A DNA stretch of 64,000 bases, taken from Marsupella aquatica (Eukaryota > Plantae > Marchantiophyta). The notes below the pieces were generated by a model. The model searched no databases. It was given only the letters and a program-made list of their open reading frames with translations, and was not told the DNA's origin. The position numbers and the translations under genes were made by a program. Position 1 is the stretch's first letter. Each line of letters opens with the position of its first letter. Positions 2,537-53,991 of the stretch are shown in pieces. The stretch covers positions 9,115,839 through 9,179,838 of the forward strand of contig OZ316893.1 of the NCBI GenBank assembly GCA_973895155.1, given 5' to 3'.

Positions 2537-13428
<10,892 letters not shown>

Positions 13429-14342
13429 TGCTTTGTCAACCTTCGCCCTCGCGGGCGACTTTCCTTTCTGTCACTCGTCAACAATAACCGAAGGCTCCGC
13501 CAACAGACGACCTCCAACCCAGCAATGCTTTCTTGCTTCCACTTCTCGCACCGCAACATCAGCTAAGTACTGCAGCGCAAAGTACCGTTCCCTGCATTGG
13601 ATAAAGCAACGATAGAAATCAGATACAATGTCCTCTCTCGGCAAGCAGCCTCCCGGGCACAACTCCAAAAAAAAACTTCCGCCGGGAAAAAAACCACAAT
13701 CAAGCGCGAAGCGAATTTTGGGCCACAACGGCGCAAATAAAACAACTCAACAAAAACATGGTTCCAGTCCAGGACCACACCAGAGCAGCTTCACAACGCA
13801 ACAAACGACACACCTTGTTCTCCTCTTGTCCGAGCTTCCAGCTCCAAGCATTCTAAAAAAACAACAACAAAAACACGAGACGGTCTTACCTTCAGACTGT
13901 CGACGAGTTCCAGCGCTGATTCTCAATCAACCATCCAATCGACCACACAGCACTACTTGCGCGCGTCATCGTAAGTGAGGAGAGTCCAGTGCTCGTCTTC
14001 TTCGCCACCTGCGTACCGCGCTACATCCGTTGAACAAGCAGGGAAGCTCCGCGAATTCGGCTCTGCTGGTCCGTCGCGAAGAATCAATTTCCCCGTGTGC
14101 TCGAGCGACGACGCGGCCACAGAACTACGAGCGGAACTGTGGTCGTGACAACCATGGTACCATAGAGCTCGCGCTCGCGGCGCCCTTCATTCGACCTTCG
14201 AGTCCGTTCCGTTCCGTTCCTTTCCTTTCCTTTCCTTTCACGATGGAAGACGAAACCTACACGACGGATCGTGAAGCTACTACGGTGTTCGTTCAAGCGG
14301 CGACAGTGTTTTACGGGCGGGGGGAAAGACCGGCGGGCGGAT

Positions 14343-14978
14343 GGACGCTCACCCCGCGCTTTTTTCAAGAGCAACTGGGACCAACTTTACTAAAACCATT
14401 TTTTTTAATTTCTCACCCCCATGACTGATTGAACATAATTTACTCGGTTGCCCTGTAAAATGTAAATTAATCTACAGTACTTATTATGTTATTTCCTTGC
14501 AAGGAATCGGTGATCGGTGCACCAGGGATTACCTGTAGCTCTTGGCTCTTGGTGGGACTTAATTACTTAAACCATCACTAGCCGCCATGACAAAAAGCTG
14601 GACGCTCACCATGCGCTTTTTTCAAAGAGCAATTGGGACCAATTTACTAAAACCATTTTTTTTAATTTTTTCACCCCCATGATTGAACATAGTTACTCGG
14701 TTGCCCAGTAATTTTATCGACTTATCATGTTATTTCCTTGCAAGGAGTCAGTGTGCTAGGGATTATCGAAGCTCTTGGTGGGACTTAAACCATATCACTA
14801 GCTGCCATGACAAAAGCTGGACGCTCGCCCCGCGCTTTTTTCAAGAGCAACTGGGACCAACTTTACTTAAACCATTTTTTTTTATTTCTCACTTCCATGA
14901 TTGAACATAATTACTCAGTTCCTTTGTAAATTTACCCTGTAAATTTGAAATTTATCTACTTATTATGTTATTTCCTTG
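14343..14978. repeat. Tandem array of a ~210-260-bp unit, left part
   Basis: Unit GACGCTCACC..TTTTTCAAGAGCAACTGGGACCAACTTTACTAAAACCATTTTT..TTTCCTTGCAAGGAATC..CCATGACAAAAGCTG starts at ~14343, ~14600 and ~14820. The third copy is cut at CCTTG by the insertion at 14979. Confidence 0.9.
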
Positions 14979-17900
14979 TGTGGTAGAGTGGTCAAACTGT
15001 TAAAGAACACTTTAACCTCTAAAGACCTGAATTCGTTCCCTTTAAGAGTGAATGAAAAGCAAATTGGTACTAAAAAGAGCAAATAAGATGTTGATTTGGC
15101 ATAACCTTACCAAGGAGTTCTCTCTCCTGAGGATTGATAGTAATCAATGCACAAAAACTAATAATTAAAGAAAGGCATGGAAAAGGACTAGTAAGAATGC
15201 CTTATCAATTGACTCATGAGAAAAGATGATGGAAAATGACGATCCCTAGCAAATCAACAGGATTCTGGATTTTTAAGATTTGGAAGGCAACAGAGCTCAT
15301 AACATGGTCGAATTAGAATAGACATCAAACATTAACTAGAAATTGACATGGAGATCTAGCTATCAAACCAAGAATTCTTTCTGATCAACAAATGGTGACG
15401 GTACTAGAATGCTTGAATTGATATCTTCTCACACAAAGATTTCTAGATTGTCAAATTGATAACTTCTCAATCAAATTTAGATAATTACTCATGGGAAAGG
15501 AAACATTCCATTTCGACTACTAGAACAGCAGGAGTTCAATGCTACCTAGAATCATATGAGTAATTCAAATTGAAATCCAACTTCAAAGTATGATGGTAAA
15601 ATTTCTAAGTATTAACTTCTCAACAGGAGGAGTCTGCAGTTCTACTCACAGCAGGTCAAGGCTCAACAGGAGCACCTGAGGAGGAGCTTCTATGCTTCCA
15701 ACAGAAACTGAGAACTAAGGAAAAATGAATCTGTGTTCCTCCAAAGATACACAAAGGAAGGATCCCAAAAGTCACAAAGTGTCATGTCCGGTTTTCATGG
15801 AAGAAAAAGTAACTGTCAATCAAAATCCGGAAATGAGAACAAAGGAAAATCCGGAAATGGATGTAAGGCAAAATCCGGGTTTTGATTTCCGGTTCTACTA
15901 CTAAATCCGGATTTAGATCTTAGTCGGTTCCGGAAATGCTAACTAACTAACTAAAACAACTAATCTACTGAGCATCATCAACTACATCTACTCTAAGTGA
16001 CTCATGTGTAAGATCAACTGGACTAGCAGGTTTCAGAGGAGGAGATGTAACTAAACTCGCAGTAGCCTCCAAGTCCTTCAAATCAAAAGGTGTTTCGCGT
16101 GGACTGATCGTCGGAGGTGACACTGACGGAAAACGGAACTCAACCTTCTCAAATTCGGGTGGGGTGCCTCCTACTTCATTTTCATCTTGCAACACCGGAG
16201 ACGTTCCGGATTCCGGAATCCGAATTCGGGGAGGAGTCAACATGGACTTCGCATCCGAAATCACTTTCTCCATCTGCTCAAACGTTCCGGAAATCTTCTT
16301 GGCAAAGCGGTTATTGCACTCAATAACCTTAACAAGGGTGCCTGGGTTGGCTGTCGCTAAATACTTATCTATCAGGTTAGCTTCCAACAAGCTCAGGACT
16401 GGTACATGAAGTGCTTCTTGAACACTAGTAACTGCAGCATTCAGTAATTTCCGGATCTTCAGGTGTTCCTCCAACTTCTTCTGTGCAGCATCCAACTGGT
16501 CCACCAAAGAGTCAATCTTCTGTCTGTCCTTGAAGGCCTGATCCTCCAAGTCCCAGATCCGCTTCTTAGCCTGACTCTTGATCACCATGTCCAGGGTGGA
16601 AACGATGACAATCGGGCTGCAGTTGAGCATCTCATCAACCGTCCCAACAAGGTCCTCAAGTTGTTTCGTCTTTCCGGCCGCACTCTCCAAGAAAATCCGG
16701 ACATGCTCCAACTCTGCTGATGCCGTCCACTTCGAACTGGGGGTCACACCCGGAAGACTTCCTCTACTTTCCGGTCTCCGGACAGGTTCCGGAACTTCAA
16801 TAGGATCCGGTTCCAGACTCTGCACAAATTTCTTCTGCGTCCTGGGAGGTCGCACTTCCACAACCGGTTCTTCTTCAGACTCAGTCCCTTCAGGTGTTTG
16901 CCAATCCGGATCTCCGAGTTGGGCTAACATGGCTTGATTCTCATACTCCTCCGCTTCTTCATCTGTAAGAATCCGGTCCATTGCGTAAAGATTGGCTAGA
17001 TAGCAAGAAAGGGATGTGGGAGTCTTCAAATGAAGATTCCGGACCTGGTTGGCTATAACTTCCTCCAAAACTTTGGCCCAGGAAATCTTCTTCTCCCCTA
17101 TGTTAGCAGCAATAGTATTTCCAATCCGGATTATAACTCGTCGAGGCTTGGCAGGGGAAAGAAGTGGAAGCAAAAAGGACAGAACATCGTAAAACTCCTC
17201 ATTACAACACTGGGAAACCTTCCAACCGTCCTTCGGATCCACTTCACCATCAAAATAGTTATCCGCAAAGGCATTCTTGGAGGTCAGGAAGCCCTCTCCC
17301 TTCAAAGGCACATCCAAAAGAGAAGAGATAACTGCTGCAGTCCACTTTTCCAGTTTTGCTCTGATCGAATCCGGAAATTCCGAAGCAAGGGTTGTGCGAT
17401 TCTGGACCTCCTTCACGAATATTGCACTCTGGTATCCCCATGGCAGCTCCATCAACTTCGCACAGCCCATGGTCTCAAGGTTCCCCTGCAAGCGGTCCTT
17501 CCTTGTTGAATCCGTGGGAATTTCCGGTCGCAACGGCTTTTCGTTCACAACGACTGTCCGCTCCTTGGTCGTCCGCTTTGGTAGCGTCCGGATTCCGGAT
17601 TTGTCCGGGGCAAAATCCGGGTCCTTTCTCTTCACCAAAATGAGGAGATGGAGAGAAAGAATCCAAATTAAAATCCTTCCAAAATCCAAAATTCCCAATC
17701 GAACGATCATCCAATCCGGAAATCTGAATCAAGTCGCAAACTTCCCCTCTCAATCGAACGATCACCCACTTCCCCCGTAACGAACTTCCTTTCATCTATG
17801 GCCTCGAAACGGCAGCCTCGTCCGGCTCTAAGCTCTCCTATGATTCCTCGCAAAAGATTTCTGCAGCAGTTCGGTGGTGTGAGGAATGCTTGGTCTGGCG

Positions 17901-18176
17901 TGGTCTTAAGAACTCGGTTGCCAACTTCCGGTCTCCAGTCGGACGTCAGACTTATGGTTTTAATATTCATTCTCCCACGCCTACTCGCATGGCTCAACGG
18001 TGCCGTTACTTATAAGTTCCAAAAAATGGTGCTATCCGGATATTTCCGGATTCAATACTGCAAAGTAGTTTGTTATGGTCTTTTCCGGTCAAAGTATACT
18101 CCGTTAACCACTAAAAGTTGAAAATTTTTAAATTTTTGCACTTTTTAATTTCCTTATTTATAACCATGGTATCACA
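14979..18176. mobile_element. 3.2-kb TG..CA insertion, probably a very long solo LTR or an internally deleted LTR retrotransposon
   Basis: Starts TGTGGTA and ends TATCACA (imperfect inverted termini). 5-bp TSD CCTTG at 14974-14978 and 18177-18181. Removing it restores the host repeat TTTCCTTGCAAGGAATC. No second LTR copy or gag/pol is seen inside. Confidence 0.85.
15965..17710 (-). CDS. Uncharacterised 581-aa retrotransposon-associated protein (globular N-half, acidic/Pro linker, coiled coil)
   Basis: Intron-free ORF wholly inside the TG..CA insertion. Hydrophobic block KISWAKVLEEVIANQV..PTSLSCYLANLY, then a heptad-like stretch. No RT, integrase or protease motifs. Confidence 0.7.
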   Translation of the reverse strand: MIVRLGILDFGRILIWILSLHLLILVKRKDPDFAPDKSGIRTLPKRTTKERTVVVNEKPLRPEIPTDSTRKDRLQGNLETMGCAKLMELPWGYQSAIFVKEVQNRTTLASEFPDSIRAKLEKWTAAVISSLLDVPLKGEGFLTSKNAFADNYFDGEVDPKDGWKVSQCCNEEFYDVLSFLLPLLSPAKPRRVIIRIGNTIAANIGEKKISWAKVLEEVIANQVRNLHLKTPTSLSCYLANLYAMDRILTDEEAEEYENQAMLAQLGDPDWQTPEGTESEEEPVVEVRPPRTQKKFVQSLEPDPIEVPEPVRRPESRGSLPGVTPSSKWTASAELEHVRIFLESAAGKTKQLEDLVGTVDEMLNCSPIVIVSTLDMVIKSQAKKRIWDLEDQAFKDRQKIDSLVDQLDAAQKKLEEHLKIRKLLNAAVTSVQEALHVPVLSLLEANLIDKYLATANPGTLVKVIECNNRFAKKISGTFEQMEKVISDAKSMLTPPRIRIPESGTSPVLQDENEVGGTPPEFEKVEFRFPSVSPPTISPRETPFDLKDLEATASLVTSPPLKPASPVDLTHESLRVDVVDDAQ

Positions 18177-18181
18177 CCTTG

Positions 18182-18600
18182 CAAGGAATCAGTGTGCCAG
18201 GGATTATCGTAGCTCTAGGTGGGACTTAAACCATATCACTACATTAGTCGCCATGACAAAAGCTGGACGCTCACCCTGAGCTTTTTTCAAGAGCAACTGG
18301 GACCAACTTTACTTGAACCAATTTTTTTTAATTTCTCACCCACAGGCTTGATTGAACATAATTACTCGGTTGCCCACTTAGTGTATTATTTCCTTGCAAG
18401 GAATTGGTGCACCAGGGATTACCTGTAGCTCTTGGTGGGACTTAAACCATCACTACCAGCAATGACAAAAGCTGGACCCTCACCCTGCGCTTTTTTGAAG
18501 AGCAACTAGGACCACTTTACTAAAACCATTTTTTATTTCCCACCCTCGTGATTGAACATAATTACTCAGTTGCCCTGTAAATTTGTCTATTTATTATGTA
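18182..18600. repeat. Tandem array of the ~210-260-bp unit, right part
   Basis: Continues the interrupted unit (CAAGGAATCAGTGTGCCAGGG), with further copies at ~18265 and ~18475. Degenerate pieces recur near 19200-19470. Confidence 0.88.
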
Positions 18601-19980
18601 CAGGGACTGGGTGTACAAAAAAATATAGTTGGGAGTATGATTTTCCCTCACACTCCTAGCCCCCCTCTATAGGAATAGTGCAGGGTATTCTCATTGGCTC
18701 TCAAGTCCAAAACTCCTACATTTTATATGTAGTGTACAGCTTGGAATATGGTGTATTTGGGGGCTTGGGGTGTCAGAGGGAGTGATTGTACTTCCTACCC
18801 CTGGCCATGAAACCTTGCCCTAAGCATGGATGGATGAGGGGTTTGTTTTGCCAATCTCCATGGACTGTGACGCACACTCCTTCACTTTACACCCAAAGTT
18901 CACACTAATGCATTATCTTTGGCAGGATGCTCACTTCTGAGAAGGATGCCCTTGGTAGTTCGTGCATGAGCCATGACCTACCACTGTGTATGCTAATGGA
19001 AAACCATTTGTGAGCCGTCAATTAGAGCCCATTTACAGGTCACATTCTAGTCAAAACTATAAAGAGTGTTATCCGAGCAATTTTTTGATGTTTTGAGTCA
19101 GCCCATCTCAGCTTTAAAAATCCATGGGGGCTTCACTGAAAACCCCTCAGTCCATCCAGGCTGTACTTTCCCCGAATCAAACACAATCTCTAAGTTTTCA
19201 TGTAAATTAATCTACTTACTATGTTATTCCTTTGCAAGGAATCAATCGGCCTTAGATAACTCAAACAACTGGAATTTGCAGCTAAGATCTATACATGGGG
19301 CAGCTTAAAAATTTAAAAGTTTTGGGAGCAACTTAAGAAAGTTGTCCAATTTTGCATGTGATTCAGTTAAAAACAGTAATGAGAACCATATTAATTTTTT
19401 CACTCCCAAAAATTGAACAAAGTTACTCAGTTGCCCCGTAAGTTAATCTATTTACTATGTTATATCCTTGCAGCTAAGATTAACCTTGGGGGTAGGTTAC
19501 TAATTAAAACAGTTTTGGGGCAAAAAGTCTTTTGGGTAGCTTAGTAAAAAAACAGTTTACTAGAAAGGCTGCAACAAAGTCAGAGAACCAATTTACAAAA
19601 TAGGCCAAAAAAAGTTAAAGAGGATTAATTTAGTAGCAAGGGCTAAACAAAAGGGTTCACACAAAGGGTGGGACAGACATCTCACCTTTTTGTAGACTCA
19701 GATTTCATCTCAATCGTTACTTAGGTTAGGGACTGGTTGTTCTTGATGTAGAAGACTAATGGCGGCCCTTTCAGATCTGGTTTGCCCAAGCCTACATGGC
19801 AGTCGGTGGGTCCAGCAAGTAAAGGTTAAGAAATCCTGACAGTGAGAATGTCCATGTAGCAACAATGACATTTTTGGGAAGCTTGGTCGAAAAGTGGGAA
19901 GCTGGTTTTTATAACAACCATTTGAAGGGCACATTTCCTGTTATTCTGGTGAACTAGCTCAAAACCCGTGCGTTGCACAA

Positions 19981-20310
19981 AAGATGTCGTTGAGAAAAAA
20001 AATGTCGTGTTGGCCAAGACGTTGTTGAGAAAAAAGATATCGTGTCGGCCAAGATGTTGTTAAGAAAAAAGATATCCTATTGGCCAAGACGTCATTGAGA
20101 AAAAAGATGTCGTGTTGGCCAAGATGTCGTTAAGACAAAAGTTGTCGTGTCTGGGGTCGTGTTGCCAATGATGTTGTTATGTAAAAGATGTCATTAAAAA
20201 CAGAAGTTGTGTTGCCAAAGAAGTTGGGTCACCAAAGAAGTTGTTATGTGAAAGATGTTGTCAAGTAAAAAGATGTTGTTAAAAAGATGTCAAGTAACAA
20301 GATGTTATTA
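19981..20310. repeat. 35-bp tandem repeat (AAGATGTCGTTGAGAAAAAAGATGTCGTGTTGGCC) x~5, decaying into shorter AAAGATGTTGT units
   Basis: Directly visible periodicity. Confidence 0.85.
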
Positions 20311-21726
20311 AAAAGAGTCGGGCAGGGGAGAAGGGAAGAGGGAGGGAGGGAGGGAGTGGGGCGAGGCAGGGCCGGCCCGGGTCATTGGGGCCAGGAAGGA
20401 GGGTGGTGGGAGGTTGACCGCAAGAGTGTGGCAGTCGACGGTTGGCGCATGGGGCAAGGCAGCAGGGTGGTCGCCCCACTCGTAGTAGAGGGTGGCTGCA
20501 CAACATTTTACTTGCCTCGGCTCAGTGCTGTCGCCACGATGAGACTGCAATTGACCTCAGGAGCGGGTGTGAGGGCCATTTTTGGTCACTATTGCTTTGG
20601 TTCTTTTCCATATTGAATTTCTTTCACCCAAAATGGCCCTGTAAATTCAAATGACGACCACGGCAAAAAAAGGCGCAATTCCTTATTAGAGTTTTTGATG
20701 TTGTCAAATGTGGTTGTCCCTTTGTATATGTATCCCTTAACCTGTCACCCCAGCCAAGAGTGGTTTGGCCCCCAACCCCTTGTTATCTCATCCAAATATA
20801 TATAAAATTTTGCCAAGTATATTTGTTTTTATAAAATGATTTCATTCATATGAGTACCAAGGGGACTGGGTGTATACACTCTCCTTGCATTGCATGCACA
20901 TCAGGTGTACATTGGGGCAGGGTCAATACAAATAAGACAATGGTCAGGGAGGGATTAATTAAAGAGGGATAAAGAGTGTATTTGCAAATACAATGATGAC
21001 ATCAAAAGGAAGTACTGTACTTTGTACTCGCTAAAGTGATGAGGAATATCAAGAAGGATTCTGCTCCCTCATATTTTGCGGTGGATTTATTTTTATTTGT
21101 TCTCTTAGCTTTGCTTTGTATATGTGATTTCTTTCATTTGGCACGGACAACTGTAAATTTTGAATGACAACCACTTCAGAAAACGGCGCAACTGTGTATT
21201 ATAGGATTTAATGTCTAATGGGCCAAAGGGCCTTTGCAAATATCTATAAACTAATTTATTAGCACTAATAAGTAGACTATAAAAATACAACAAGAAATCG
21301 CCATAAAGTTTTAGAGGAGGGTTCACAAGGAATAAGGATCCTGGGATTTATTCAAGTTTGAGTCTCGGTTTGAAAATGTTTCAAGTCTGAATTTTCAACC
21401 ATAGTTGTGTTATTAAATATAGTAAGTTGTTAATGATCATTGGCAGTGGAAAGCTTGATGGTCTCCCCGCCATACTAATTGTTAAACATAGTGGACAATA
21501 ATTACAGACCCCCACTCGGGGTCCCTTCCAAAATTCCAGGCTCCACAACGCACCACATCATCACGGCACGTTGCAAACACGAAGAGACTTTTTTTTGGAT
21601 AAAATTAACTTTTGCATTCGTGTTTGTGGCAACTTTTCATTAAAAACTAGGATGTCATGCCGTAAAAAAGAATGTAAAAAAAACTGAAATGCAAATCAAA
21701 AGACAAAGATTGAGGTAAAACTGCCC

Positions 21727-21901
21727 TGTCGTGACATATAGTATCGAAGCCATAGTGTATCGAAAACATACAGTCACTGGCAAGGCATATGAGCAAGCTG
21801 CTAGCAACCAACATGCATAGAAAAAGTCCCATCACATTTACAAGTGCCAAGAAAAAGCAAATGAGGTGGTATGTACGTAGTGGAGGTGTAAACCTCTGTA
21901 T
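21727..21901 (-). repeat. Repeat B2 (175 bp), 3' end of the element
   Basis: Second copy of 22262-22436. Abuts A2 and ends ..CACGACA on the element strand. Confidence 0.95.
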
Positions 21902-22259
21902 ATAAAAGGTGTGATAGAAACAAGTGTACTGAAATCGAATCGAAAACCGGCGAGATGCCAAGATCGACCGGGAGCATCTAACGAATCACTGTGTGAATCC
22001 CGTGTACGGAACCGACGAGCACTGTCTAAGCTCTGTCGACAGCGATTCAAGAAGAACTGAAAACCCTCAAAGAAAGACATGCCCTAAGCAAGCAAAGTCC
22101 TGGCGTCACACTAACAAACACATTTGCTTCAAGAACGGCCCAGACTTGCTACAAGAACATGTCGCTAACTCAGGTAGTACACTAGCCCTAACTACATACC
22201 TAGCGGGCATGAGAGGGACATGCCGATGTGCATAAGAGGCACTGTCCCTCGGCATGACA
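21902..22259 (-). repeat. Repeat A2 (358 bp)
   Basis: Second copy of 31350-31707. Separated from B1 by only 2 bp (GC, 22260-22261). Confidence 0.95.
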
Positions 22260-22261
22260 GC

Positions 22262-22436
22262 TGTCGTGACATACAGTATCGAAGCCATAGTGTATCGAAA
22301 ACATACAGTCACTGGCAAGGCATATGAGCAAGCTGCTAGCAACCAACATGCATAGAAAAAGTCCCATCACATTTACAAGTGCCAAGAAAAAGCAAATGAG
22401 GTGGTATGTACATAGTGGAGGTGTAAACCTCTGTAT
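22262..22436 (-). repeat. Repeat B1 (175 bp)
   Basis: Matches 21727-21901 with 2 substitutions. Immediately preceded on the element strand by a G7 run (22437-22443). Confidence 0.95.
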
Positions 22437-22475
22437 CCCCCCCAGACCACAGCCAAAAGGAGGGCTGAAGAAAAG

Positions 22476-23918
22476 TCAGGTAGCACGTGGAGCACAGGAA
22501 GGGCAAAACCACAACCCTTCTGGCACCTGGGAAAGTTCAGGCCGAAGGCAGAAAAGATGGTACCCTCCATTGCAATTGTCACACAGCAGCATCTGGTCAG
22601 CATCATCAATTCGCAAACACACTTTGCAAGGGTAATCCACAGGTGGGATCCAAGTAGAAGTGACAATGGTGGGATCCAGGTTAGGTAGATGACAAGGGGC
22701 ACAATTCTTGGCATTGTCAGCAATTGTGCGCCCATCTGCCCCTTGTAACTCTAGCACTCCAGACGGTCGAATAGCTTTAACCCTGAGAATAGTACGACTG
22801 GTAGAGGTGTCCAGGGTGTCGTTAGCTTGCCGCTGCAAGTACACAAAATCTCCCACATCAAACTGCCTGACCTTGGGCTGAAAAGTGCCCCCTCGTGTGT
22901 GTGCATAACGCAGTGTGTCCCTGTGCTGTGCAATGGCCAAATTCTCCATGGCCATGGGCATAACCCTCCTGAATAGGGCAGCCCTCTCAGAGATCACATC
23001 AGACCAAGTCACAGCTGAATCCAAGTCCACCACGTGAAGCATGTGAGCAGCAATAGCAGAAGGTGGAACTGGGTGACGACCAAACAACAAGAAGTAGGGA
23101 GAAAAGTTAGACAGTGATGCATGTCTGGACATCCTATACCCCATGGCAATGTAGGGTAAGGCCAGGTCCCAATCCTCCTTGTTTTTGGTAAGGCAGATCT
23201 TCCGGAGGTCCTTCTTGCATGTCTGAACCATGCGCTCTGCCAAGCCATCTGCCTGTGGGTGATCTCGTGATGTCCGACGATGATCAATGAGGGCCTGAGC
23301 AAGCAGCTCCTGGAACTCTCCTCTAAACTCTGAGCCCTGGTCAGTGAGACATTCTGCACAAGCTCCAAAACGACTGAGAACTTGTTGCAGGAATGCCTGG
23401 CTGGTGCTACGGGAGATCTTATCCGGCAATGCCACAAGTTCTATCCACTTGGAGAAATGCTCTATCATGATCATGATGTAGAGATTACCCCGAGACGTGA
23501 GGGGTAATTCTCCAGCCAAATCACATGACCAGTGATAAAACATGCCCTGAATAGGGAGTGGATGAAGTGTGGGTTGCCGAGATGTGAAAGAAGTCCTCAC
23601 CCTATCACACTGTTCACACCGGGCAATAACATCTCGGACCTGGCCATGCATGCCTCTCCAATGATAATGAGGGACCAAGAGGCTATAAGTCCTCTTAACG
23701 CCAAAATGACCAAGCTCAGAATGTACCTTACGGATAAGGCCAACCCTCTCATGAATGGGTGGAACCACCACTTCCCTGTCTGGCAAGCAGCGCACGAGAT
23801 GATCTCCCTTCCACAAGTAACGCTTGGACCTTTGCTGAATGCGGTCTCTCTGGGCAACAGTAACATGTACGGGTACTCCCCATGCTGCAAAAATCTCACA
23901 GTGTCGTTGTCCTCCCAT
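22476..23918 (-). CDS. DDE integrase with C-terminal PHD finger (frameshifted continuation of pol)
   Basis: HHCC zinc motif HSELGH..CEQC; catalytic WSCDLAG, LTDQGSEF, GLAERMV; PYFLLFG. C4HC3 PHD CKVC..LLCDNCNGGYHLFC..WFCPSC at 22494-22628. Confidence 0.93.
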   Translation of the reverse strand: MGGQRHCEIFAAWGVPVHVTVAQRDRIQQRSKRYLWKGDHLVRCLPDREVVVPPIHERVGLIRKVHSELGHFGVKRTYSLLVPHYHWRGMHGQVRDVIARCEQCDRVRTSFTSRQPTLHPLPIQGMFYHWSCDLAGELPLTSRGNLYIMIMIEHFSKWIELVALPDKISRSTSQAFLQQVLSRFGACAECLTDQGSEFRGEFQELLAQALIDHRRTSRDHPQADGLAERMVQTCKKDLRKICLTKNKEDWDLALPYIAMGYRMSRHASLSNFSPYFLLFGRHPVPPSAIAAHMLHVVDLDSAVTWSDVISERAALFRRVMPMAMENLAIAQHRDTLRYAHTRGGTFQPKVRQFDVGDFVYLQRQANDTLDTSTSRTILRVKAIRPSGVLELQGADGRTIADNAKNCAPCHLPNLDPTIVTSTWIPPVDYPCKVCLRIDDADQMLLCDNCNGGYHLFCLRPELSQVPEGLWFCPSCAPRAT

Positions 23919-26900
23919 ATGTCCACCATAGGTTGGTCAACAACGTAGCATGGCAGCAAAGCAAGATAAGTAGATGCATGAAATGTAGGCAGGATGGAAA
24001 CCTGGTCAAAATCCTGCCGTGCATTTGAGGAATCATCAGAGGCAATCAAAGGGCTGCGGGACATAGTGTCAGCATTTTGATGTGTCACACCAGGCCTATG
24101 AATTACCTCAAAATCATACTCCTGGAGTATGAGCGCCCAACGAGCAAGCTTGCCAGTAAGCTTGTCGTTGGTCATCAACCACTTTAAGGGCTGGTGGTCG
24201 GTGTAGAGAACAAACCTGGTCCCATAGAGGTAGGGCCTGTAATGTATGACAGCCCACACAACAGCAAGGCATTCACCCTCATAAGAAGAATAATGACTCT
24301 CTGCCTGATTGTTGCTCCTGGATGCATAGGCAATGACGTACTCTTTACCTTCCTCATCAGGCTGGCCCAGAATGGCATCAATCCCAAGGGCACTCCAATC
24401 TGTGTGTAGCACAAAGACCTTGCTGAAATCAGGTCTTCTAAGCACCGGGTATTCTGAGAGCTTCTCCTTCAAAGTGACAAATGTTGCCTCAGCATTTGTA
24501 CTCCATGTCCAAGTCACATTCTTTTTCAACAAAGAGTACAATGGATGTGCAATGGTACTGAAATCTTTGATGTAGATCCGGTAGTAATTGCACAACCCAA
24601 TAAAGCTCCTAAGAGTGTGAACATCAGTAGGAGTGGGCATTTCCAGGATGGATACCACTTTGGCCCAGTGAGCCATGGTTCCATTTGGAAAAATGCGGTG
24701 CCCAAGGTATACTACTGATCTGACAGCAAATTCACACTTCTTGGGGTGTATCTTCAGGTTCACCTTCTTGAGCCTCATGAATAGCTCCTCAAGGTCAAGT
24801 AGATGCTGGTCAAATCCTTTGTTGTGGACCAACACATCATCAATGTAGCATTTCAGAAACTCAACACCTTGAAGAACGTGGTCCATGACTCTTTGAAAGA
24901 ATATGGGCGCATTCTTCAAGCCAAATGGCATCACCAACCACTCCCATAGTTGGTTACTACCATGGAAAGCTGTTTTCTTGCGATCCTTTGCAAGCAGCAA
25001 AATCTGGTTAAAGCCTTGCCTTAGATCCACAAGAGTGAAGATGTCTGAGTCTCCAATGCTGTCAAATAGCTCCTCTGGCCGTGGCATGGGGTACCTGTCC
25101 TGGGGTGTGACCAGGTTCAGTGGCCTGTAGTCCCCACACATGCGCTTCTCTGTCCACAATCCACTGGAATCCTTCTTTGCTGGCATCACTGTAGCTGCTG
25201 CAAAATCTGATGTAGATGGCTGAATAAGACCAGCTTCATATAACTCTTGGCACCTCTCATCCACCAGCTGCCACTCATGCTTACTCAAACGATGTCTCCG
25301 CCTGAAGATAGGTGTTTCATCAGCCAACTCAATGGAGAACTGCATGGTCTTGCACTTACCCAAGTCCTTCATAGAGAAAGCAAACACATTCTCATACTTG
25401 AGGAGCAAATTCAGCAGCTGGTCCTTCTGCCTTTTACTCAGGTGGTTGCCCATGATGAATGTGTAGTTGGCAACACTAGGAATAGGACCTGATGTACTCG
25501 TGCTTGAAGAGCCAAAAGTGCCAGCCTCTCCACTGTCCAAGCTGCTAGCATGCTGCTGATAATGTGATGAGGCCTCTCCAAGGCCTGTTGTACTTGTTGC
25601 TCTGGTCTGATCCACACCATGAAACTCAAAAATAATGTCAGCCACGTTACAAGGGATCTCCTCCCCCCCAACACTTGGACTGAAGCGGTGAGTGTTGAAT
25701 AGAGGTAAGTGCACCTGGTCTGGATGCCATGTAGCAGCACCATGGAGTGGTAGAGCTGGAACTCCTGGTGCGGGATGAATGTACATCTGAAGAAGGATGC
25801 AAGTGACCAAAAGCCAAGTGAGAGCATGGAGATCCATTACCCTACCAAGTAAAGCATTCCTGGCCAGCCTGGTGATGTGGGTGTGGCCTGTAGTACCGGA
25901 TTGGAAGCCCATAGCCCGTTCTCTCTCCTCAGGACTAGGTTCATCCCAAGTACTGGTAGAATGTCGATAAACCAGGCCAGGACCATCACCCTGAAAGGCA
26001 TGTGCACCTAGAAAGGATACAAATGTAGGCCAAGCAGCACGGGGCTGTCTAATGGTATTGGCTGGATACCAAGGTGCTGGCTCTTGCCGTGTAACTGGTT
26101 GGCAAGAACTGTCAGGATCCAAAATCTGGTCCACTGTGAGGTTAGTGTCCCTGGATGTGTGGTGAAGAGCTAACTCCAACAAGGAAGGTGGTGCAAGGTT
26201 AGTCCAAAAGTTACGAAGACGATGTGCATAAGAACCACAGTGCACTGCATCAATGAGAAGGGGTGGTCCCAAGTAGTGTTGGACCACACTGAAATCTTCT
26301 TTGACCTGTGGACGCTGATCAAACTGAGATGGAGTATTCTCAATGATATAACCAACAGCAGGATAAAGGGATTGAGCCCAGGTGAGAATCTGAACCAATG
26401 CTGTGAAAAGGCCAGAACGAGAATCATGCAGTCCAGCATCGTGACCAGCAGCTAAAAACCCTTGGCATTCCCAACCAGCTATGATCAAATCAAGGGAGCC
26501 AAGAAGGGTTAAGTGCCGGTGCTGGACAAGCTGGATATATGGAGGAAAGAAAGAAAATGCAGACTTCCATGCACTGTGTGGAAACTGCTGGGGAAATCGC
26601 TTTGAAAATTCCAGCAGACGGGATTCAGCCACTTGCCTTGCACCTGGATCAATATCCACATAGATGTACTGCTTCACCACCATGCCAAACTGTAGGAGAG
26701 CTTCCAGGCCTGTAGAAATGCCACCAAAAAGCTCAAGCAATGTAAGGCCATCTGAAGGAGGAGTCCATGTAACTGGTGCGCTCAAGATTGGGGCTATTGG
26801 TTGGCCATTGTGCTGCCCAAGATCCTCAAATTTGCGCAATGCAGCCACCAAAGGTCCATGGGCTGCTTGGAGCCGTTGTACCACCTCTGGTTGATGATCC

Positions 26901-28282
26901 ACGCTGCTGGAAAGTGCTGCTATATGTGCAGCAGCATGTGCAGTAGCCACCTCATCGTCATCCTCCTCAATCCAATCTTGTAATGGGTGGTTGACATAGG
27001 TAGCTGTGTGCACTGCTTTCAACACACAGTGGTGAGCCATAGGTGTATGGGCACCATGCAAATCAAGTGGAATGTAGCCCAAGTGTGAGCCATCAGTATG
27101 CCAATCAACTCTGTAGTATGCATGCTCATGCCAGTTGTCAATGGTAAAACCTGGTGGGAACAAAGCCTCCTGGCCAATGAGCACATCATACGTAGTGGCA
27201 TTGGTAACCAAACATCTGACTGGGAAATGCAGTTCCTGATCTGTACCTCCATTAAAAGTGAGAGTGAGTAAAGTAGAACTCTCACCCAGCACATCCTCCA
27301 CAGTGCCACTAGCAGTCCGAATGTGCCACTTGGATTGCTGTAAGTGATCAGTCAACAGTCCCATCTTCTTGGCAAACTGAATGCCCAATATCACTGGTTG
27401 AGCACCTGTGTCTAGCATGACCACCTGAGGAGTGTGACCCTCCAACTTGACCACGGAATTCCTGTTGTCAACAATGGCAATGGTGGTGGAAACTGAAGTC
27501 CTGTCACTAGGCACCACTCTCGGCAAATGATGAGGTACCTTGTGAAGGGAGTTAGTGTCCACGGTCTTTCCACTCAACAACATAGCCAGGAAAGATGGAG
27601 CAGCATGACCAGAATCAAATGTAGCTCTGGTCACACAATCAGCAGCAATCGGTACTGGGGCAGCCAAACCAATGGAAACATGTAAAGGAGAAGAAGAAGG
27701 TCCAGTATGTACATGAGATTGGACCTCCAAAACCGGTGTCACAGGGGCTGATGAAGAATGCAGTGAACCCTCTAGCGCTCTGATGACAGCTCTAGCATCC
27801 AGCTGTAAATCATGGCAACTGAAAAGTGGAGTTGTAAGAATCCTTTGTGCCATACTGGAGGTGAAATGCTCAAGCAGCTCAGGAGAAACAACTCCCTGTG
27901 AAATGTCAGCAGCACCTGGTGGTGGAATGGATGTAGCTGCAGCTCCCTCCCCCCTCGCCAACAAGGTGCGCTCTTCAGCAAGTGTGAGTGGCTGAAAAGA
28001 TTGGGGCATGATAGCCTGAGCTCCCCTGGCTCTAGTTATAGGACTGGCAAGACCATCAGCCTGTACAATGCGGCGTGTGGGAGCAATACGGGAGGCAGCA
28101 CTAGCCTGTTGGTAAGCAAAATAGGAAGGGCAGAATGAATCTGAAAATTCTGCTGTAAGGCCAGGCTGTGGAGCAGAGGACAGCACACACTCACCCATAT
28201 GAGCATCAAATGGCAAGCCATAGAAAGAGCGGGGTAGAGGTGCTGAACTGTCAGTGGTGCCTGGGCCAGGGATGGGTTGCAC
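23597..28282 (-). CDS. Pol polyprotein: aspartic protease, C5-cytosine methyltransferase, reverse transcriptase, RNase H
   Basis: Protease VMLDTGA..YDVLIG (~27170-27420). MTase motifs at ~25820-26750. RT KRMCGDYRPLN, VMPFGLKNAP, YIDD (~24840). RNase H LHTDWS, YEGECLAV, YTDHQPL. The reading frame shifts to the integrase ORF near 23870. Confidence 0.93.
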   Translation of the reverse strand: MQPIPGPGTTDSSAPLPRSFYGLPFDAHMGECVLSSAPQPGLTAEFSDSFCPSYFAYQQASAASRIAPTRRIVQADGLASPITRARGAQAIMPQSFQPLTLAEERTLLARGEGAAATSIPPPGAADISQGVVSPELLEHFTSSMAQRILTTPLFSCHDLQLDARAVIRALEGSLHSSSAPVTPVLEVQSHVHTGPSSSPLHVSIGLAAPVPIAADCVTRATFDSGHAAPSFLAMLLSGKTVDTNSLHKVPHHLPRVVPSDRTSVSTTIAIVDNRNSVVKLEGHTPQVVMLDTGAQPVILGIQFAKKMGLLTDHLQQSKWHIRTASGTVEDVLGESSTLLTLTFNGGTDQELHFPVRCLVTNATTYDVLIGQEALFPPGFTIDNWHEHAYYRVDWHTDGSHLGYIPLDLHGAHTPMAHHCVLKAVHTATYVNHPLQDWIEEDDDEVATAHAAAHIAALSSSVDHQPEVVQRLQAAHGPLVAALRKFEDLGQHNGQPIAPILSAPVTWTPPSDGLTLLELFGGISTGLEALLQFGMVVKQYIYVDIDPGARQVAESRLLEFSKRFPQQFPHSAWKSAFSFFPPYIQLVQHRHLTLLGSLDLIIAGWECQGFLAAGHDAGLHDSRSGLFTALVQILTWAQSLYPAVGYIIENTPSQFDQRPQVKEDFSVVQHYLGPPLLIDAVHCGSYAHRLRNFWTNLAPPSLLELALHHTSRDTNLTVDQILDPDSSCQPVTRQEPAPWYPANTIRQPRAAWPTFVSFLGAHAFQGDGPGLVYRHSTSTWDEPSPEERERAMGFQSGTTGHTHITRLARNALLGRVMDLHALTWLLVTCILLQMYIHPAPGVPALPLHGAATWHPDQVHLPLFNTHRFSPSVGGEEIPCNVADIIFEFHGVDQTRATSTTGLGEASSHYQQHASSLDSGEAGTFGSSSTSTSGPIPSVANYTFIMGNHLSKRQKDQLLNLLLKYENVFAFSMKDLGKCKTMQFSIELADETPIFRRRHRLSKHEWQLVDERCQELYEAGLIQPSTSDFAAATVMPAKKDSSGLWTEKRMCGDYRPLNLVTPQDRYPMPRPEELFDSIGDSDIFTLVDLRQGFNQILLLAKDRKKTAFHGSNQLWEWLVMPFGLKNAPIFFQRVMDHVLQGVEFLKCYIDDVLVHNKGFDQHLLDLEELFMRLKKVNLKIHPKKCEFAVRSVVYLGHRIFPNGTMAHWAKVVSILEMPTPTDVHTLRSFIGLCNYYRIYIKDFSTIAHPLYSLLKKNVTWTWSTNAEATFVTLKEKLSEYPVLRRPDFSKVFVLHTDWSALGIDAILGQPDEEGKEYVIAYASRSNNQAESHYSSYEGECLAVVWAVIHYRPYLYGTRFVLYTDHQPLKWLMTNDKLTGKLARWALILQEYDFEVIHRPGVTHQNADTMSRSPLIASDDSSNARQDFDQVSILPTFHASTYLALLPCYVVDQPMVDIWEDNDTVRFLQHGEYPYMLLLPRETAFSKGPSVTCGREIISCAACQTGKWWFHPFMRGLALSVRYILSLVILALRGLIASWSLIIIGEACMARSEMLLPGVNSVIG
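25820..26750 (-). other. C5-cytosine DNA methyltransferase domain inside pol
   Basis: Motif I LELFGGIS, II YVDID, IV LIIAGWECQG (catalytic Cys), V DSRSGLF, VI YIIENT, VIII AHRLRNFW, IX ERERAMGF, X RNALLGRVMD, all in canonical order. Confidence 0.9.
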
Positions 28283-29835
28283 GTGACCGCCGGTTGAGAA
28301 GGACCAGCAGAGGCAGTTGACTTGCCTTTGATGTTGGCAAGTTGGGCACGTAGGGACTCAATCTCATGAGTCAGAGACTGGAGTTGAGTTGCCTGTGCGT
28401 TGTGAGCCTCCTTTTGAGCTAGTTGCTTTGGTTGCTTCTTGGGCGGTTTGTTGGCACTGGATGCTTTGCCACTGGAAGGAGGAGCAGTTGATGTAGTAGG
28501 AGCCCTCCTAGCTGGTGGGGGAGTGGAAGCAGGAGCAGGAGGAGGGGCCTGCTGGCGTAGCTGCTTCCTCTCTGGGAATTTGGCAAAACAAACTGCCTCC
28601 AAGTGACCCACTTTTCCGCAAAAATCACAAGACAGGTCCTCAGCAACAATATCACAGTCATTAGCCTTGTGATTGGGGTTACCACAGTAGTTGCAAGATG
28701 GCAGCATGAAAGCAGCATGGGCTGGCTTGGTCTTGGAACCATACTGTGGCACACGGGAAGGGGTGGCCAGTGTAGGGGCAGCAGCCCGGTACCTGGATCG
28801 CGGTGGACGTGCAATACTGGCCTCATAATGTGCATGGGCCAACTCAAGTTTCTCAGCAGTGTCATAGACATTGAGCAGGGTGTAGCTGTCTCCAAACTCT
28901 GAGAATACTTGCTGCAACACTTGCGAATGGAGAGCTAGTGTGCCCTCCAATGCGCGAAGATAGCGATGAGCAGCTTCCAGGTCAGTGATGCTCTGGGTGT
29001 CCTCCTTAAGCTTGAGAAGCCGACGATACATCATCTTCAAGGTTTCATCGCGTTGCCTCACAAAGGTGGCCAACTGCATGATTTTGTCAGCACTCTTGAT
29101 GGGGAATTCCAATTCAAGAACCTGGAAAAACTCAGCCACTGGATCAGCAAAGGCAGGGGAATCAATGGTGGGAGAAATGCCTGATGTAGCCTGTGCCAAG
29201 ATAGTGGGAGTAACTAGCGCAGTGGTAGGAACTGGAGTAGGAGGGGAAGTGGCAGGAGCAGCAGCATGGGCTGCAATGGCATTCTGTAATGCCAATTGTG
29301 AGGCAGCCGCAATTGCACTGGCATAAGCAGGGTTAGGCAATTGTGTGACAGCAAGCAGCCGTTGAGAGTGCTGCTCATACACATCCAAAGCCTCGTGGTG
29401 CACATACTTGGCTAGCTGCTTAAATGCAAAAGCATTTGTGAAATTGCTGCCGTACTTCAACTCCAATTCATAAACGACAGTGTAGAAAGTGGATTTGAAC
29501 TCACGTAAAGAAACAGTGCCTGGCCGCCCGCTGAAGCGCTCAATGCGGCCAGATGAGTGGCTAACATCCATGCTGTATGTCGGTGAAGCTGGAACAACCA
29601 CTGATGCAGAAGGGGTAAATGGCAAGGAAGTGGTAACAGGCTTCGGGTTAGTGGTGAAGCAACCGCCAAATTGAGCAGAAGGATTGCGTGGTGTGGGTGC
29701 TGCTGCTGTCTGCGGATGTCGTCGAAATTGCCGAGACTCCAATGAAATTGGCACCAATGGTCGTGGATCACTCCGTAAATGGTACCTGGGTGTCGGTGGT
29801 GATGTGCTGCTACCTCCTGGCTCGTCGGCTGACAT
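28036..29835 (-). CDS. Gag-like protein with two CCHC zinc knuckles
   Basis: IERFSG..LREF N-terminal capsid-like motif and QRDETLKMMYRRL major-homology-like motif. Knuckles CNYCGNPNHKANDC and CDFCGKVGHLEAVC. Confidence 0.9.
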   Translation of the reverse strand: MSADEPGGSSTSPPTPRYHLRSDPRPLVPISLESRQFRRHPQTAAAPTPRNPSAQFGGCFTTNPKPVTTSLPFTPSASVVVPASPTYSMDVSHSSGRIERFSGRPGTVSLREFKSTFYTVVYELELKYGSNFTNAFAFKQLAKYVHHEALDVYEQHSQRLLAVTQLPNPAYASAIAAASQLALQNAIAAHAAAPATSPPTPVPTTALVTPTILAQATSGISPTIDSPAFADPVAEFFQVLELEFPIKSADKIMQLATFVRQRDETLKMMYRRLLKLKEDTQSITDLEAAHRYLRALEGTLALHSQVLQQVFSEFGDSYTLLNVYDTAEKLELAHAHYEASIARPPRSRYRAAAPTLATPSRVPQYGSKTKPAHAAFMLPSCNYCGNPNHKANDCDIVAEDLSCDFCGKVGHLEAVCFAKFPERKQLRQQAPPPAPASTPPPARRAPTTSTAPPSSGKASSANKPPKKQPKQLAQKEAHNAQATQLQSLTHEIESLRAQLANIKGKSTASAGPSQPAVTCNPSLAQAPLTVQHLYPALSMACHLMLIWVSVCCPLLHSLALQQNFQIHSALPILLTNRLVLPPVLLPHAALYRLMVLPVL

Positions 29836-31349
29836 GCTGCATGCTCACCTGGGTGCCAATGGGAAAGAAACTGACAAGAAAAAGAAATGGCAGCCCCAAG
29901 GCTAGGAAATAAACGGTGCGAGGCAGAAATGTGTCGAATGTGTAAACACACAGAAAAATTGTCACAGAGAAAAACCGTCACCGGAGAAAAAGGACCCTTA
30001 AAACCACCAAATTGTCCCTTGTCGCACTTACCTATGTGTATACATAGGCGAAGCAAAGAATAAGGGAAAACGGGCCCCTAGAACGTGAAAGGAGGGCCCC
30101 CTTTACGTGTATACCTCGGGCCCCTTGTGGACCCGGAAACTGGCAGCAAAGGTATGCAAAAGTAGGTGGGACGGTCGTCGCACGGCGAAGGAGCAAGAAG
30201 GCCAAAAACTAAAAGAAAAGGGCCCCAATTAAGTGTATACACATGGGGGCAGGGCGTCGGCAGAAAAATGGTCGGCCGCAGTGCCCTATGCACATGCCCT
30301 CATGTGAGTCGAAAGACTCTGCAATCGTCGCGCAGCGGACGAGCGACCATGGAGGAACAGAAAAAGAAATAGAAGAAAAACGGCTTTGGCAAGGACGAAA
30401 GGAAAAGACGAGACCCAAGGCGAGGAAAAAGAAAAACGGGCCTTTAAGTGCTCTAGCCCTGCATAGGGCTTTGCGCACCCTTCCCCTCCTCTAATGTTCC
30501 ATAGGGCCTCGTGCCCTTGTCCTCGCCCCTGACAAAAGCACTCCCGTGTGAGGGAGTTTGAATTGAACTCCCCTGAGTCCCCTCCCCTGGTTTAATGCTG
30601 CCTAGGGCCTCGTGCCCTTCTTTCGCTTCCCCCTCCCCTCCTTAATGCTTCATAGGGCCTCGTGCCCTCTCCTGGCACACTCGCGCTGCCTTATGCTCGG
30701 CTCCCCTTCCCCCATGCTTTAATTCTCCATAGGGCTTCGTGCCCTCTGTCCTCTCGCTTGCTTATGGCAGGGCAAAAAGAAAGGGAGTCGAGGCAGGAAA
30801 AACGGGCGAGAAAATGCCGAAAAAGGGAAGAAACATCCCGGATTGAGGAGGGACTACGGCCGGTAAAGGGAGATACAGCCGAGGCAAGGGCATGGTGCCC
30901 TATGCACGGCCTGTGCAGGGCGTCGCGAGGCAACAAAACGGGCTCAACGGCAGCCGTGGCCGAAAAGTGGCAACAAACACAAAACGGCCCCAAAAGCAGT
31001 CGAGGCAACGGTTGATGCAACGTCGGCAGCAGCAGGTTGTGGCGGGAATGTGAAGGGCCAGCGGCCTACAAACCACGGGTTGCAGTCGGGAGGTGGTCGT
31101 GCGGCAAACGGCAGTGACAGTCGGAAGCAGCAAAGGAGTCGCGGATGCAACCGGAAAGGGAACTCCTGACCCCTTCGGAAGCATGGATATGTGTATACAC
31201 TTAAGTATACACATAACCACATAAACCCATAACTTTCATTCCGTCGCTCCAATGTTCGTCAAAGAAATTGCAATGGCTTCACCAAAAATTGTCGAAATCG
31301 CCACGAGCAATCTTCTTCCCGTCACCGCTAACTCGACAGTTCTTCTTGA

Positions 31350-31707
31350 ATAAAAGGCGTGATAGAAACAAGTGTACTGAAATCGAATCGAAAACCGGTG
31401 AGATGCCAAGATCGGCCGGGAGCATCTAACGAATCACTGTGTGAATCCCGTGTACGGAACCGACGAGCACTGTCTGAGCTCTGTCGACAGCAATTCAAGA
31501 AGAACTGAAAACCCACAAAGAAAGACATGCCCTAAGCAAGCAAAGTCCTGGCGTCACACTAACAAACACATTTGCTTCAAGAACGGCCCAGACTTGCTAC
31601 AAGAACATGTCGCTAACTCAGGTAGTACACTAGCCCTAACTACATACCTAGCGGGCATGAGAGGGACATGCCGATGTGCATAAGAGGCACTGTCCCTCAG
31701 CATGACA
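31350..31707 (-). repeat. Repeat A1 (358 bp), 5' end of the element
   Basis: Matches 21902-22259 with about 7 substitutions by eye. Confidence 0.95.
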
Positions 31708-52300: not shown

Positions 52301-53991
52301 AGCAGAAAGGTAATTCTGTGTATGAAAGAGTTGAGAAGTAGAAAGGATGCAAGATATGAGCAATGTGCCGGAACAGAGGTCTATTTGTCGCTGTGTGCAG
52401 ATTATGTTGACATTTTTGCCAACAAAACACTTACTCTGAGGGAAAAAGTGGTTCTTTGTGGAAAAGTCTCATTTTTATTGAGATTGTGGCGATTATGGGT
52501 GTTCCATGGAAATCACCAAGTAGGGGGCAACAGACAGAAGATTACTATGAGCAATATGGTCTCTATGCAAACATTCTTGGATGTTCAAATGTCATTGCAC
52601 TTTGCAGTGCTTCTCATTATCCAATTTCGAGATCATTTCCCTGGTTTACCTATCCCTTTGCATTTAACCGGTTCAGATAGTTGTGAGAAATTTTTCTCCA
52701 AAGTGGGAGGAATGAAAGGAACAGAACGCTGTTATGATGTGGCTGAATTGGTAGATTGCGCCACATCATTAAACCGCTTAGCAGAAATGGATTTAACTGA
52801 TGGAATCCATGGTATTGGGAAGAGTCATAAAAAACATAAAAACATTTGGATGAAAATACATTTTCCAGAGGGATATCAAGATGCAGATTTCACAGATTAT
52901 AGTGGCATCAATACCAATGATGAGATAGTGATAGCATTGAAAGAAGGTTTTTCTTTGGCCCAAGATGCAGCTACTCTAGTTCAAATGAACCCCTCCACAT
53001 CATGCAGGAATTGTCTGTGGTGGACATCACCTTGGGTAGTAGAGGCAAAGGGAAGGGACCAAGGAGGTTGGTGTGACATTATAGTGGAGACTTTGCCTGT
53101 GGAAGACCAACCTGAATCAGAGCAACAGCCACATCTTGTGGTGGGCTCCTCTGCTGCTGGTATTACAGAGGATATAGTTGAAGGAGATGGGGTGGCGGAT
53201 GAAGTTATTGCCCAAGGAGAACTCTAGGGAACTATCCGTGAATTGTGTGCTGAGTTGAATGAAGGTCCAGTAGTTCTTGGACAGCCCAAATGGGTTCCCA
53301 TGGTTAGTTGTGACAATCGTTATATATACAAAAGTACATTGGTGAGTCAACTAGCTGGAAATCCTAGTCTTAGTAAGGATCGATTAACCAGGGTGAAAAA
53401 CATAGTGTTTATTTCAATAATCTGGTTGATAAACGATCAGATCAAGAAGGGGTTCCAACAATGTTCATGTCTTATGGTATGGACTGTGGAGTGTATTTTG
53501 TAGCAGATCCACAACCTGGTAAAGAAACCAGGTCTCAAGGTCTACTAAAAGCATTGTCAAGGAAGGGAAAAGGACAACCTACCTCAACCTCTGGAAGAAA
53601 AGTTTCAAAGAAGGGAGGCAAAGGTGAAGCTGTGTCTGTAGGATCCATTCCAAGAGTGGAAAAGTATGTTTGGTGGATTGGAAGAGTTCAAATGATTCGG
53701 AAAAAATATAACAACAAATGGGGAAGATGCAGGGAACCTATTGACTTACTTGATAGGCCTGGCAAAGTGGATGATGGATCAGCTGTGTGTGAAGTACTGT
53801 TCAATTGGTTCAGTCCCTGTAGTGGGAGAACAAAATTTCGATATGATATGTGTGATCCTCAATGGATTGATTTGGACTGTGTGATATCCACAGTGAGCCT
53901 TTCAATAGCTCCAGCTACTCCTAATGTGTTTGTCTTGCATGATCATGATGCAAGTTTACTTGATGATTTTGTAAAGAACAAGATCATATGA
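49397..53991 (+). pseudogene. P-element/THAP9-like DDE transposase, C-terminus disrupted
   Basis: 1276-aa ORF with LAEDETCVK (~51575), HASDGD (~51930), DYIHNAKKLIN (DxxH, ~52105), DRQNWTSAQRICS and GSDSCEKFFS (~52680). After TAG 53225-53227 the same frame stays open, then a frameshift near 53400 leads into ORF 53461-53991. Confidence 0.8.

Follow-up and report, generated by a model that had tools for sequence, protein, structure and literature searches.

A conserved internal copy of the joined termini in a Ty3/gypsy-type retroelement with split repeats: a likely integrase attachment site within the LTR

A Ty3/gypsy-type element with split direct repeats carries, at the boundary between two of these repeats, a copy of its own two ends joined head-to-tail around two base pairs, CATGACA-GC-TGTCGTG. 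This junction is fixed and widely conserved among related elements and is not an accident. Judged from its sequence context, the motif is likely to be a conserved, element-encoded copy of the termini that serves as an attachment site inside the LTR and is opened by a 2-bp staggered cut. With somewhat less assurance, we favour a wider reading, in which an old, green-lineage gypsy clade relocated its attachment site from the termini of the cDNA into the middle of the LTR. The reverse transcript would normally be joined end to end and then opened at the encoded CA-GC-TG, and each genomic copy would thus be a circularly permuted two-LTR circle.

Organization of the element

The window (the whole stretch of DNA that was analysed, 64,000 nucleotides) contains the following features of the element, in order of position:

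21723..21726, plus strand: left copy of the target-site duplication GCCC, 4 bp (4-bp duplications also occur in relatives)
21727..31707, minus strand: whole Ty3/gypsy-type element, 9,981 bp, with TG..CA ends and the order A1-internal-B1-GC-A2-B2
21727..21901, minus strand: repeat B2, 175 bp, 3' end of the element
21901..21902, minus strand: A2/B2 joint, blunt in this copy and ragged in relatives, a putative LTR-LTR junction made by end joining
21902..22259, minus strand: repeat A2, 358 bp
22205..22256, minus strand: hairpin beginning 3 nt past the junction, with a copy in A1 too (z -1.9 to -2.9)
22253..22268, no strand assigned: joined-termini junction (end of B1, GC spacer at 22260-22261, start of A2), putative integrase attachment site
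22262..22436, minus strand: repeat B1, 175 bp, its ATACA start adjoining the G-run
22437..22443, minus strand: G7 run (GGTCTGGGGGGG) ahead of B1, polypurine-tract-like
22476..23936, minus strand: integrase (H2C2, rve) and PHD finger, in another frame than pol in the window copy
23597..28357, minus strand: pol ORF with aspartyl protease, DNMT3-like C5 methyltransferase (within 25600-26800), reverse transcriptase and RNase H (Pfam)
28036..29844, minus strand: gag ORF with a zinc knuckle (zf-CCHC, E 0.0024, below the curated cut-off)
31337..31351, minus strand: primer-binding-site-like 15-mer at the A1-internal boundary, perfect reverse complement of 31493-31507
31350..31707, minus strand: repeat A1, 358 bp, 5' end of the element
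31493..31507, minus strand: putative RNA 5' end and self-primer within A1, with its A2 copy at 22045-22059
31708..31711, plus strand: right copy of the target-site duplication GCCC, 4 bp

The coding strand of the element is the minus strand, along which A1, the internal region, B1, GC, A2 and B2 follow one another. Two complete direct LTRs around an internal region are absent, and the DIRS-type A-coding-B-A-B repeat layout is found instead. Aligned within the window, A1 and A2 show 7 differences in 358 positions, and B1 and B2 show 2 in 175. The TG..CA termini, the 4-bp target duplication (expected range 4-6 bp) and the gag-PR-RT-RH-IN domain order with a DDE integrase are those of a Ty3/gypsy element. 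The integrase triad D139-D199-E234 is intact in the window copy, and all 38 aligned relatives share D199 and E234. No chromodomain was found by Pfam, and a PHD finger stands at the integrase instead. The segment between protease and reverse transcriptase has DNMT3A as its best PDB match (E 3.5e-6), and a Dnmt3-like domain is present in 29 of 34 long related loci.

Among named proteins, that of the liverwort Calypogeia fissa is nearest (86%), followed by proteins of Klebsormidium nitens and Haematococcus (49-56%), and the element appears to come from a bryophyte. The integrase-PHD proteins of K. nitens, at 50-56% identity, are placed in the clade of the window element by a quick tree, and may belong to the described element KnitGypsy-Dnmt3 itself. 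One review, in its accessible portion, describes transposon methylases as absent from land plants such as tracheophytes (PMC6338049).

The left flank of the element (21550-21726) is a high-copy repeat in public runs, which places the element inside or beside another repeat. Elsewhere, the window contains a dispersed family of repeats of about 220 nt in 5-6 copies (14320-14960 and 18160-19480), a tandem array with a period of 35 nt (19946-20310), two long open frames with no Pfam match at E 0.001 (49364-53227, plus strand, 1,287 aa, and 15965-17728, minus strand, 587 aa), and a fragment like an ABC1 atypical kinase (62123-62764, plus strand).

The joined-termini junction and its conservation

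The left half of the junction, CATGACA, is the right end of the element (31701-31707), and the right half, TGTCGTG, is its left end (21727-21733). The first-pass annotation had described the B1/A2 boundary as both ends head-to-tail with a 2-bp spacer, forming a perfect palindrome; this is confirmed for GACAGCTGTC at 22256-22265, the whole 16-mer being an imperfect palindrome with one mismatched pair. Palindromes of 10 bp are ordinary, with 79 in the window and 11 within the element. The composite CATGACA-N(0-10)-TGTCGTG occurs a single time in the window, both strands scanned, and lies exactly at the border of two long repeats, so its position is non-random.

The related set comprises 80 metagenome loci with an integrase identity of 64-83%, to which a spacer-unbiased scan for the junction was applied. 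The junction was found in 40 of the 80, and the CA-TG spacing is 2 nt in all 40. When duplicates are merged, the 80 loci become 70 insertions (L058 and L060 are probably one further pair), and the spacer is again 2 nt in 33 of 33; L047 and L063 were excluded from this count for their more decayed 2-nt junctions. Four best matches with a 5-nt 'spacer' (L018, L041, L051, L068) proved to be 15-bp tandem units inside B with no A behind them, and are not junctions. The junction is moreover the sole DNA similarity found between the 3' 900 bp of the element's region in the window (21600-22500) and the 80 loci.

The identity of the spacer is less constant than its length: AC in 11 of the 33 junctions, GC in 10, GT in 6, AT in 4, and AA and TC in one each, which makes the spacer more variable than the neighbouring positions. 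That GC accounts for only 10 of 33, together with this variability, is counted against the attachment-site model. The spacer types are mostly transitions from GC, and 84% of the B1-B2 differences are transitions; AC, GT and AT are what C-to-T change would make of GC within a methylated CAGCTG. Copies with a GC spacer are not significantly younger among the relatives (p 0.12), which is likewise counted against the model.

Twenty-two further, more distant loci were also scanned. Among the seven with 41-53% integrase identity, five carry exactly one GACAGCTGTC, 56-240 nt past a G6-7 run, and the other two end too early; none of the 15 loci with 21-38% identity carries it. B1 equals B2 in one locus, L084. 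Viral contigs gave no match in a single-protein search, and an alignment search led to two distant loci, both without the motif. In a quick integrase tree, in which long branches are flagged, the motif-bearing branches are spread across the clade with the Klebsormidium and Haematococcus proteins nested among them. The loci L083-L089 are eukaryote-type retroelements on contigs filed under prokaryotic metagenome-assembled genomes, a filing that is probably due to contamination.

These fixed-spacer counts rest on related metagenome families, and the spacer of the window's own family is not part of them. That family is represented by contigs of four public runs (two studies), which cover the whole 3' region. 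Among the 24 of 367 loose contig ends listed, unlike flanks begin exactly at 21727 in 16 contigs of X1 (agreement 0.40) and 8 of X2 (0.47), and exactly at 22259, the start of A, in 14 contigs of X3 (agreement 0.42), and A is joined to internal sequence at 21902. Mutually unlike flanks at identical positions mean that the termini of the window's family are fixed across many insertions. Among the 40 of 207 differences listed for the window-family contigs, none falls at 22260-61; the constancy of the spacer is thus known from relatives.

The first-pass annotation had named two observations that would tell against its reading, namely the absence of the junction from other copies and a spacer that follows the target site. 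The junction occurs in other copies and in other families, and the spacer does not follow the target site: among nine elements with both a spacer and a target duplication, the first and last bases match in the window's alone.

Target duplications and forms of the copies

B1 is followed by A2 in 34 of the 70 insertions and B by flank in 26, and 10 are unclear. The nine full-form elements with both ends have a 4-bp duplication that is exact in six (ATGT, ACCT, ATAA, CCTT, TTTA and ACAA), has one mismatch in two and is absent in one, and the eight elements of the form A-int-B have it exact in three, with one mismatch in three and absent in one, the 5' end being lost in one. One locus, L080, is a lone A/B with a CAAT duplication. 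The 53 3' flanks show an A/T lean and otherwise no clear target motif. Full and A-int-B copies have similar terminal branch lengths (p 0.77), a test that cannot separate direct integration from later recombination.

The mirror form, A/B-GC-A-int-B, was seen in none of the 17 loci with A1 present, against nine full forms (p 0.004). L013 was considered as a mirror form and rejected, having no B upstream. L083, a circular-looking contig, and the stretches of L083 and L086 in which A continues into internal sequence were taken for collapsed assemblies rather than physical circles.

In L054, L065 and L049, B ends in 15-bp tandem units, each containing CACGACA, and the termini are one unit shorter; L054 and L065 still have an intact target duplication. 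Such a terminus would result either from cutting at the upstream unit or from slippage at a later time.

Priming signals and the LTR made by reverse transcription

At the boundary between the internal region and B1, the window reads GGTCTGGGGGGG directly followed by ATACA. The metagenome family shares this arrangement, at least six G in the last 8 nt ahead of B1 being found in 61 of 63 relatives, and a G-run is also present in L083-L086 and L089; the run has the signature of a polypurine tract. In L089, about 3 kb (9517-12879) with a long open-looking stretch lies between the integrase and the G-run and junction, and is a possible extra ORF.

Directly past A1 no tRNA-type TGG site was seen by eye, and a 14-15-mer complementary to part of A is found instead. 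In elements of the Tf1 type, the first bases of the RNA pair with the primer-binding site, and the complement pair at the A1-internal boundary would be a self-priming signature of this type. In 16 of 18 relatives, A contains a complement of the primer-binding site that has two mismatches at most and in every case lies 31-32 nt past a TATA box, as compared with 5 of 1,800 control 14-mers. The self-pairing of L083 is perfect over 13 nt and is a third sequence, unlike that of the window (15 nt, perfect) and those of other relatives. The A repeat of the window has no TATA box, and no clear self-priming pair was found in L085, L086 and L089, both of which are counted against the attachment-site model. 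In L083, 7 nt (CACTTGA) are common to the primer-binding-site-like sequence (~7054) and the start of B (~7410), and might serve end joining as a built-in microhomology.

Both a primer-binding-type site after the 5' repeat and a polypurine-type site before the 3' repeat are thus present as sequence signatures. Their positions at the A1-internal and internal-B1 boundaries suggest that the LTR produced by reverse transcription is probably B-GC-A, with the attachment site and its junction inside the LTR. The first-pass proposal of a templated attachment site survives both observations that it had named, and is amended in one respect: given these signals, the B1/A2 boundary is not an LTR-LTR junction in the sense of reverse transcription.

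The place of such a junction would be taken by the A2/B2 joint. Eight classes of joint occur among 34 copies, with a blunt AT in 15, the loss of 2 nt at an AT overlap in 6, and extra bases of the primer-binding site, an extra G or deletions in the remainder. This raggedness between copies is as expected of an end-joined LTR-LTR junction, and whereas length changes are frequent at the joint, the joined-termini junction has none (p about 1e-6, Fisher test). The joint types are distributed over the tree without signal (18 changes versus 17.9 shuffled), and as the tree is star-like, with 46 of 67 inner branches open, this comparison has little power. By comparison of layouts, the genomic form would be a linear B-GC-A-int-B-GC-A with its ends joined, opened at the 5' GC.

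Proposed integration route and alternatives

The proposed route starts from directly observed points: the fixed junction, the TG..CA ends, the variable 4-bp duplications, the intact DDE triad and the absence of a tyrosine recombinase match in the frames searched. The RNA would start inside A1 and prime itself at the A1-internal boundary as in Tf1, with plus-strand priming at the G-run ahead of B1. The resulting linear cDNA would be B-GC-A-int-B-GC-A, with physical ends ATACA.. and ..AT that contain no attachment sites. These ends would be joined imprecisely, through an end-to-end jump of the reverse transcriptase or host end-joining, giving the A/B joint. The integrase would then nick each strand of the 5' CA-GC-TG after CA. 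This would produce CA-3'OH ends that carry 2-nt 5' overhangs, as processed retroviral ends do, and the opened molecule would be inserted with a 4-bp stagger. The product, A-int-B-GC-A/B, would retain the second junction as a template for the next round. Copies of the form A-int-B might arise when both junctions are used, from a one-LTR circle, or by later recombination of B1 with B2.

A symmetric two-LTR circle predicts the mirror form, so its absence makes polarity an added assumption of the route. Speculatively, polarity could come from the plus-strand end-to-end jump or from earlier completion of the 5' LTR duplex, the 5' junction copy being favoured because it is already double-stranded, and has received the plus-strand jump, at a time when the 3' copy is still incomplete.

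The foremost alternative, possible but on balance unlikely, is a templating mechanism like that of DIRS/PAT elements, in which the reverse transcriptase rebuilds the termini from B1-GC-A2 and stops 2 nt beyond, perhaps at the hairpin beside the junction, and the integrase trims a linear A-int-B-GC-A-B and never cuts internally. Such templating accounts for the missing mirror form, and the accessible portions of two articles describe an identical repeat layout in PAT/Ngaro (PMC4157794) and an analogous ICR that is required for DIRS-1 transposition (PMC7192593). The conserved hairpin, which starts 3 nt past the junction and could either mark the attachment site or stall the reverse transcriptase, is also in its favour: in relatives, where its sequence is a different one, z is below -2 in 19 of 33, compared with 8/32, 3/33 and 4/32 in control blocks. 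Nevertheless, under templating the A/B joint should be inherited, yet it falls into eight classes, has no tree signal and contains extra primer-binding-site bases or an extra G; moreover, the polypurine-like and primer-binding-like sites at the inner boundaries predict ends at the start of B and the end of A, and not at the junction.

That a tyrosine recombinase, supplied in cis or in trans, recombines the junction site-specifically, as proposed for DIRS circles, is very improbable. Split direct repeats are a hallmark of tyrosine-recombinase elements, and the flanks share bases with the spacer, in the window alone. On the other hand, no tyrosine recombinase match was found in 14 frames and segments at E 0.1 or in the three main ORFs at E 0.001, the DDE triad is intact, the 3' flanks have no clear target motif beyond the A/T lean, and the variable 4-bp duplications of unrelated sequence largely refute this mechanism. 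A one-off accident (autointegration, nested or tandem insertion, or a rearranged LTR element, with GC taken from the GCCC target) has the single copy in the window in its favour and is hardly credible in view of the B1-A2 order in 34 of 70 independent insertions, the identical core in distant families and the variety of flanks that public runs show at the same termini, and is refuted by the recurrence of the junction with a fixed 2-nt spacer in relatives.

Novelty and significance

For retroviruses and LTR retrotransposons alike, the ends of linear cDNA are regarded as the substrate of integrase, circles being dead ends or a minor salvage route. The integration route proposed here, in which the encoded junction is opened in an end-joined molecule, is probably new, none such being established for any LTR retrotransposon. 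In the literature searched (subscription papers, Repbase reports and theses being outside its coverage), the junction, target duplication, priming sites and integration route of such elements were not found. The polypurine-like G-run ahead of B1 and the Tf1-type self-priming site past A1, as sequence signatures, are also new here. What was already known is that a gypsy element with Dnmt3 can have the A-coding-B-A-B layout, which was noted once in the accessible literature, for KnitGypsy-Dnmt3 of Klebsormidium.

A single internal CA-GC-TG kept from algae-like relatives to land plants makes the question of circles as precursors testable on a natural substrate, and the junction element links LTR elements with split-repeat DIRS/PAT elements. 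If the proposed route is true, a natural LTR retroelement would have the circle, a side product in retroviruses, as its obligate precursor, and it would offer a working model for how the split repeats of DIRS/PAT elements arose from LTRs. Software that finds LTR elements by requiring an LTR on either side would overlook these high-copy elements or misplace their boundaries. The elements additionally bring a DNMT3-like enzyme into apparently bryophyte genomes.

Comparison with known systems

KnitGypsy-Dnmt3 of Klebsormidium nitens has repeats arranged as in DIRS according to a Fig. 4 legend, a layout that the article elsewhere writes as A-coding-B-A-B (de Mendoza et al. 2018, PMC5890265), and has this layout and a Dnmt3-type domain in a gypsy pol in common with the window element, whereas neither the sequence of a junction nor a target duplication, any priming sites or a mechanism is given in the accessible part of that article. 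Among the literature searched, KnitGypsy is named solely there; it is absent from the text of the supplement, whose figures may bear on novelty.

The self-priming site is shared, as a sequence signature, with Tf1/Sushi and plant Tcn1, for which the accessible part of one article describes a primer-binding site that is not complementary to tRNA and predicts self-priming (PMC6317226). Those elements have an ordinary LTR-internal-LTR structure and a chromodomain, in contrast to the PHD finger and split repeats found here. Gypsy-7a_cRei, an active element of Chlamydomonas with 86 new insertions, also bears a PHD finger, and its LTR is drawn as several subparts (PMC9940879).

The circle junctions of HIV and MLV contain four extra bases. 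The first-pass annotation had likened the boundary to retroviral circle junctions; the form CA-extra bases-TG holds, and the 2-bp geometry fits that of foamy virus. As far as the accessible portions of these sources extend, foamy-virus integrase in vitro cuts both strands of a palindromic junction, each behind its CA, so that a 5' AT overhang results (PMC1180852), HIV circles are cleavable and integrable (PMC4372172), and the titles of two papers from 1989 present MLV as inefficient in using a palindromic junction or internal att site, which is counted against the attachment-site model. Foamy virus thus shares the palindromic junction with the window element, and the geometry of a 2-nt 5' overhang with the cut predicted for it. 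In foamy virus and HIV-1 the junction is made by ligating att ends and is a side route, whereas here it is genome-encoded and, if the attachment-site model holds, would be both internal to the LTR and the main route.

PAT, Kangaroo, TOC, Ngaro and VIPER share the A1-B1-A2-B2 split direct repeats and an internal copy of the joined ends, as the accessible portions of two articles describe (PMC4157794, PMC7192593). Unlike these, the window element has a DDE integrase in place of a tyrosine recombinase, variable 4-bp duplications and TG..CA ends, and its methyltransferase is of the C5 type, whereas that of the PAT/Kangaroo/TOC/Ngaro/VIPER group acts on adenine. PAT/Ngaro elements integrate through recombination at a short common motif and leave no variable staggered duplication, whereas unrelated 4-bp duplications are found here. 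In the IS3 family, for example in IS911, a DDE enzyme of the rve type acts on a circle in which the two ends abut across a short spacer, and opens it at that junction. The members of that family are bacterial DNA transposons in which the spacer derives from the donor flank, whereas the spacer of the window element is templated.
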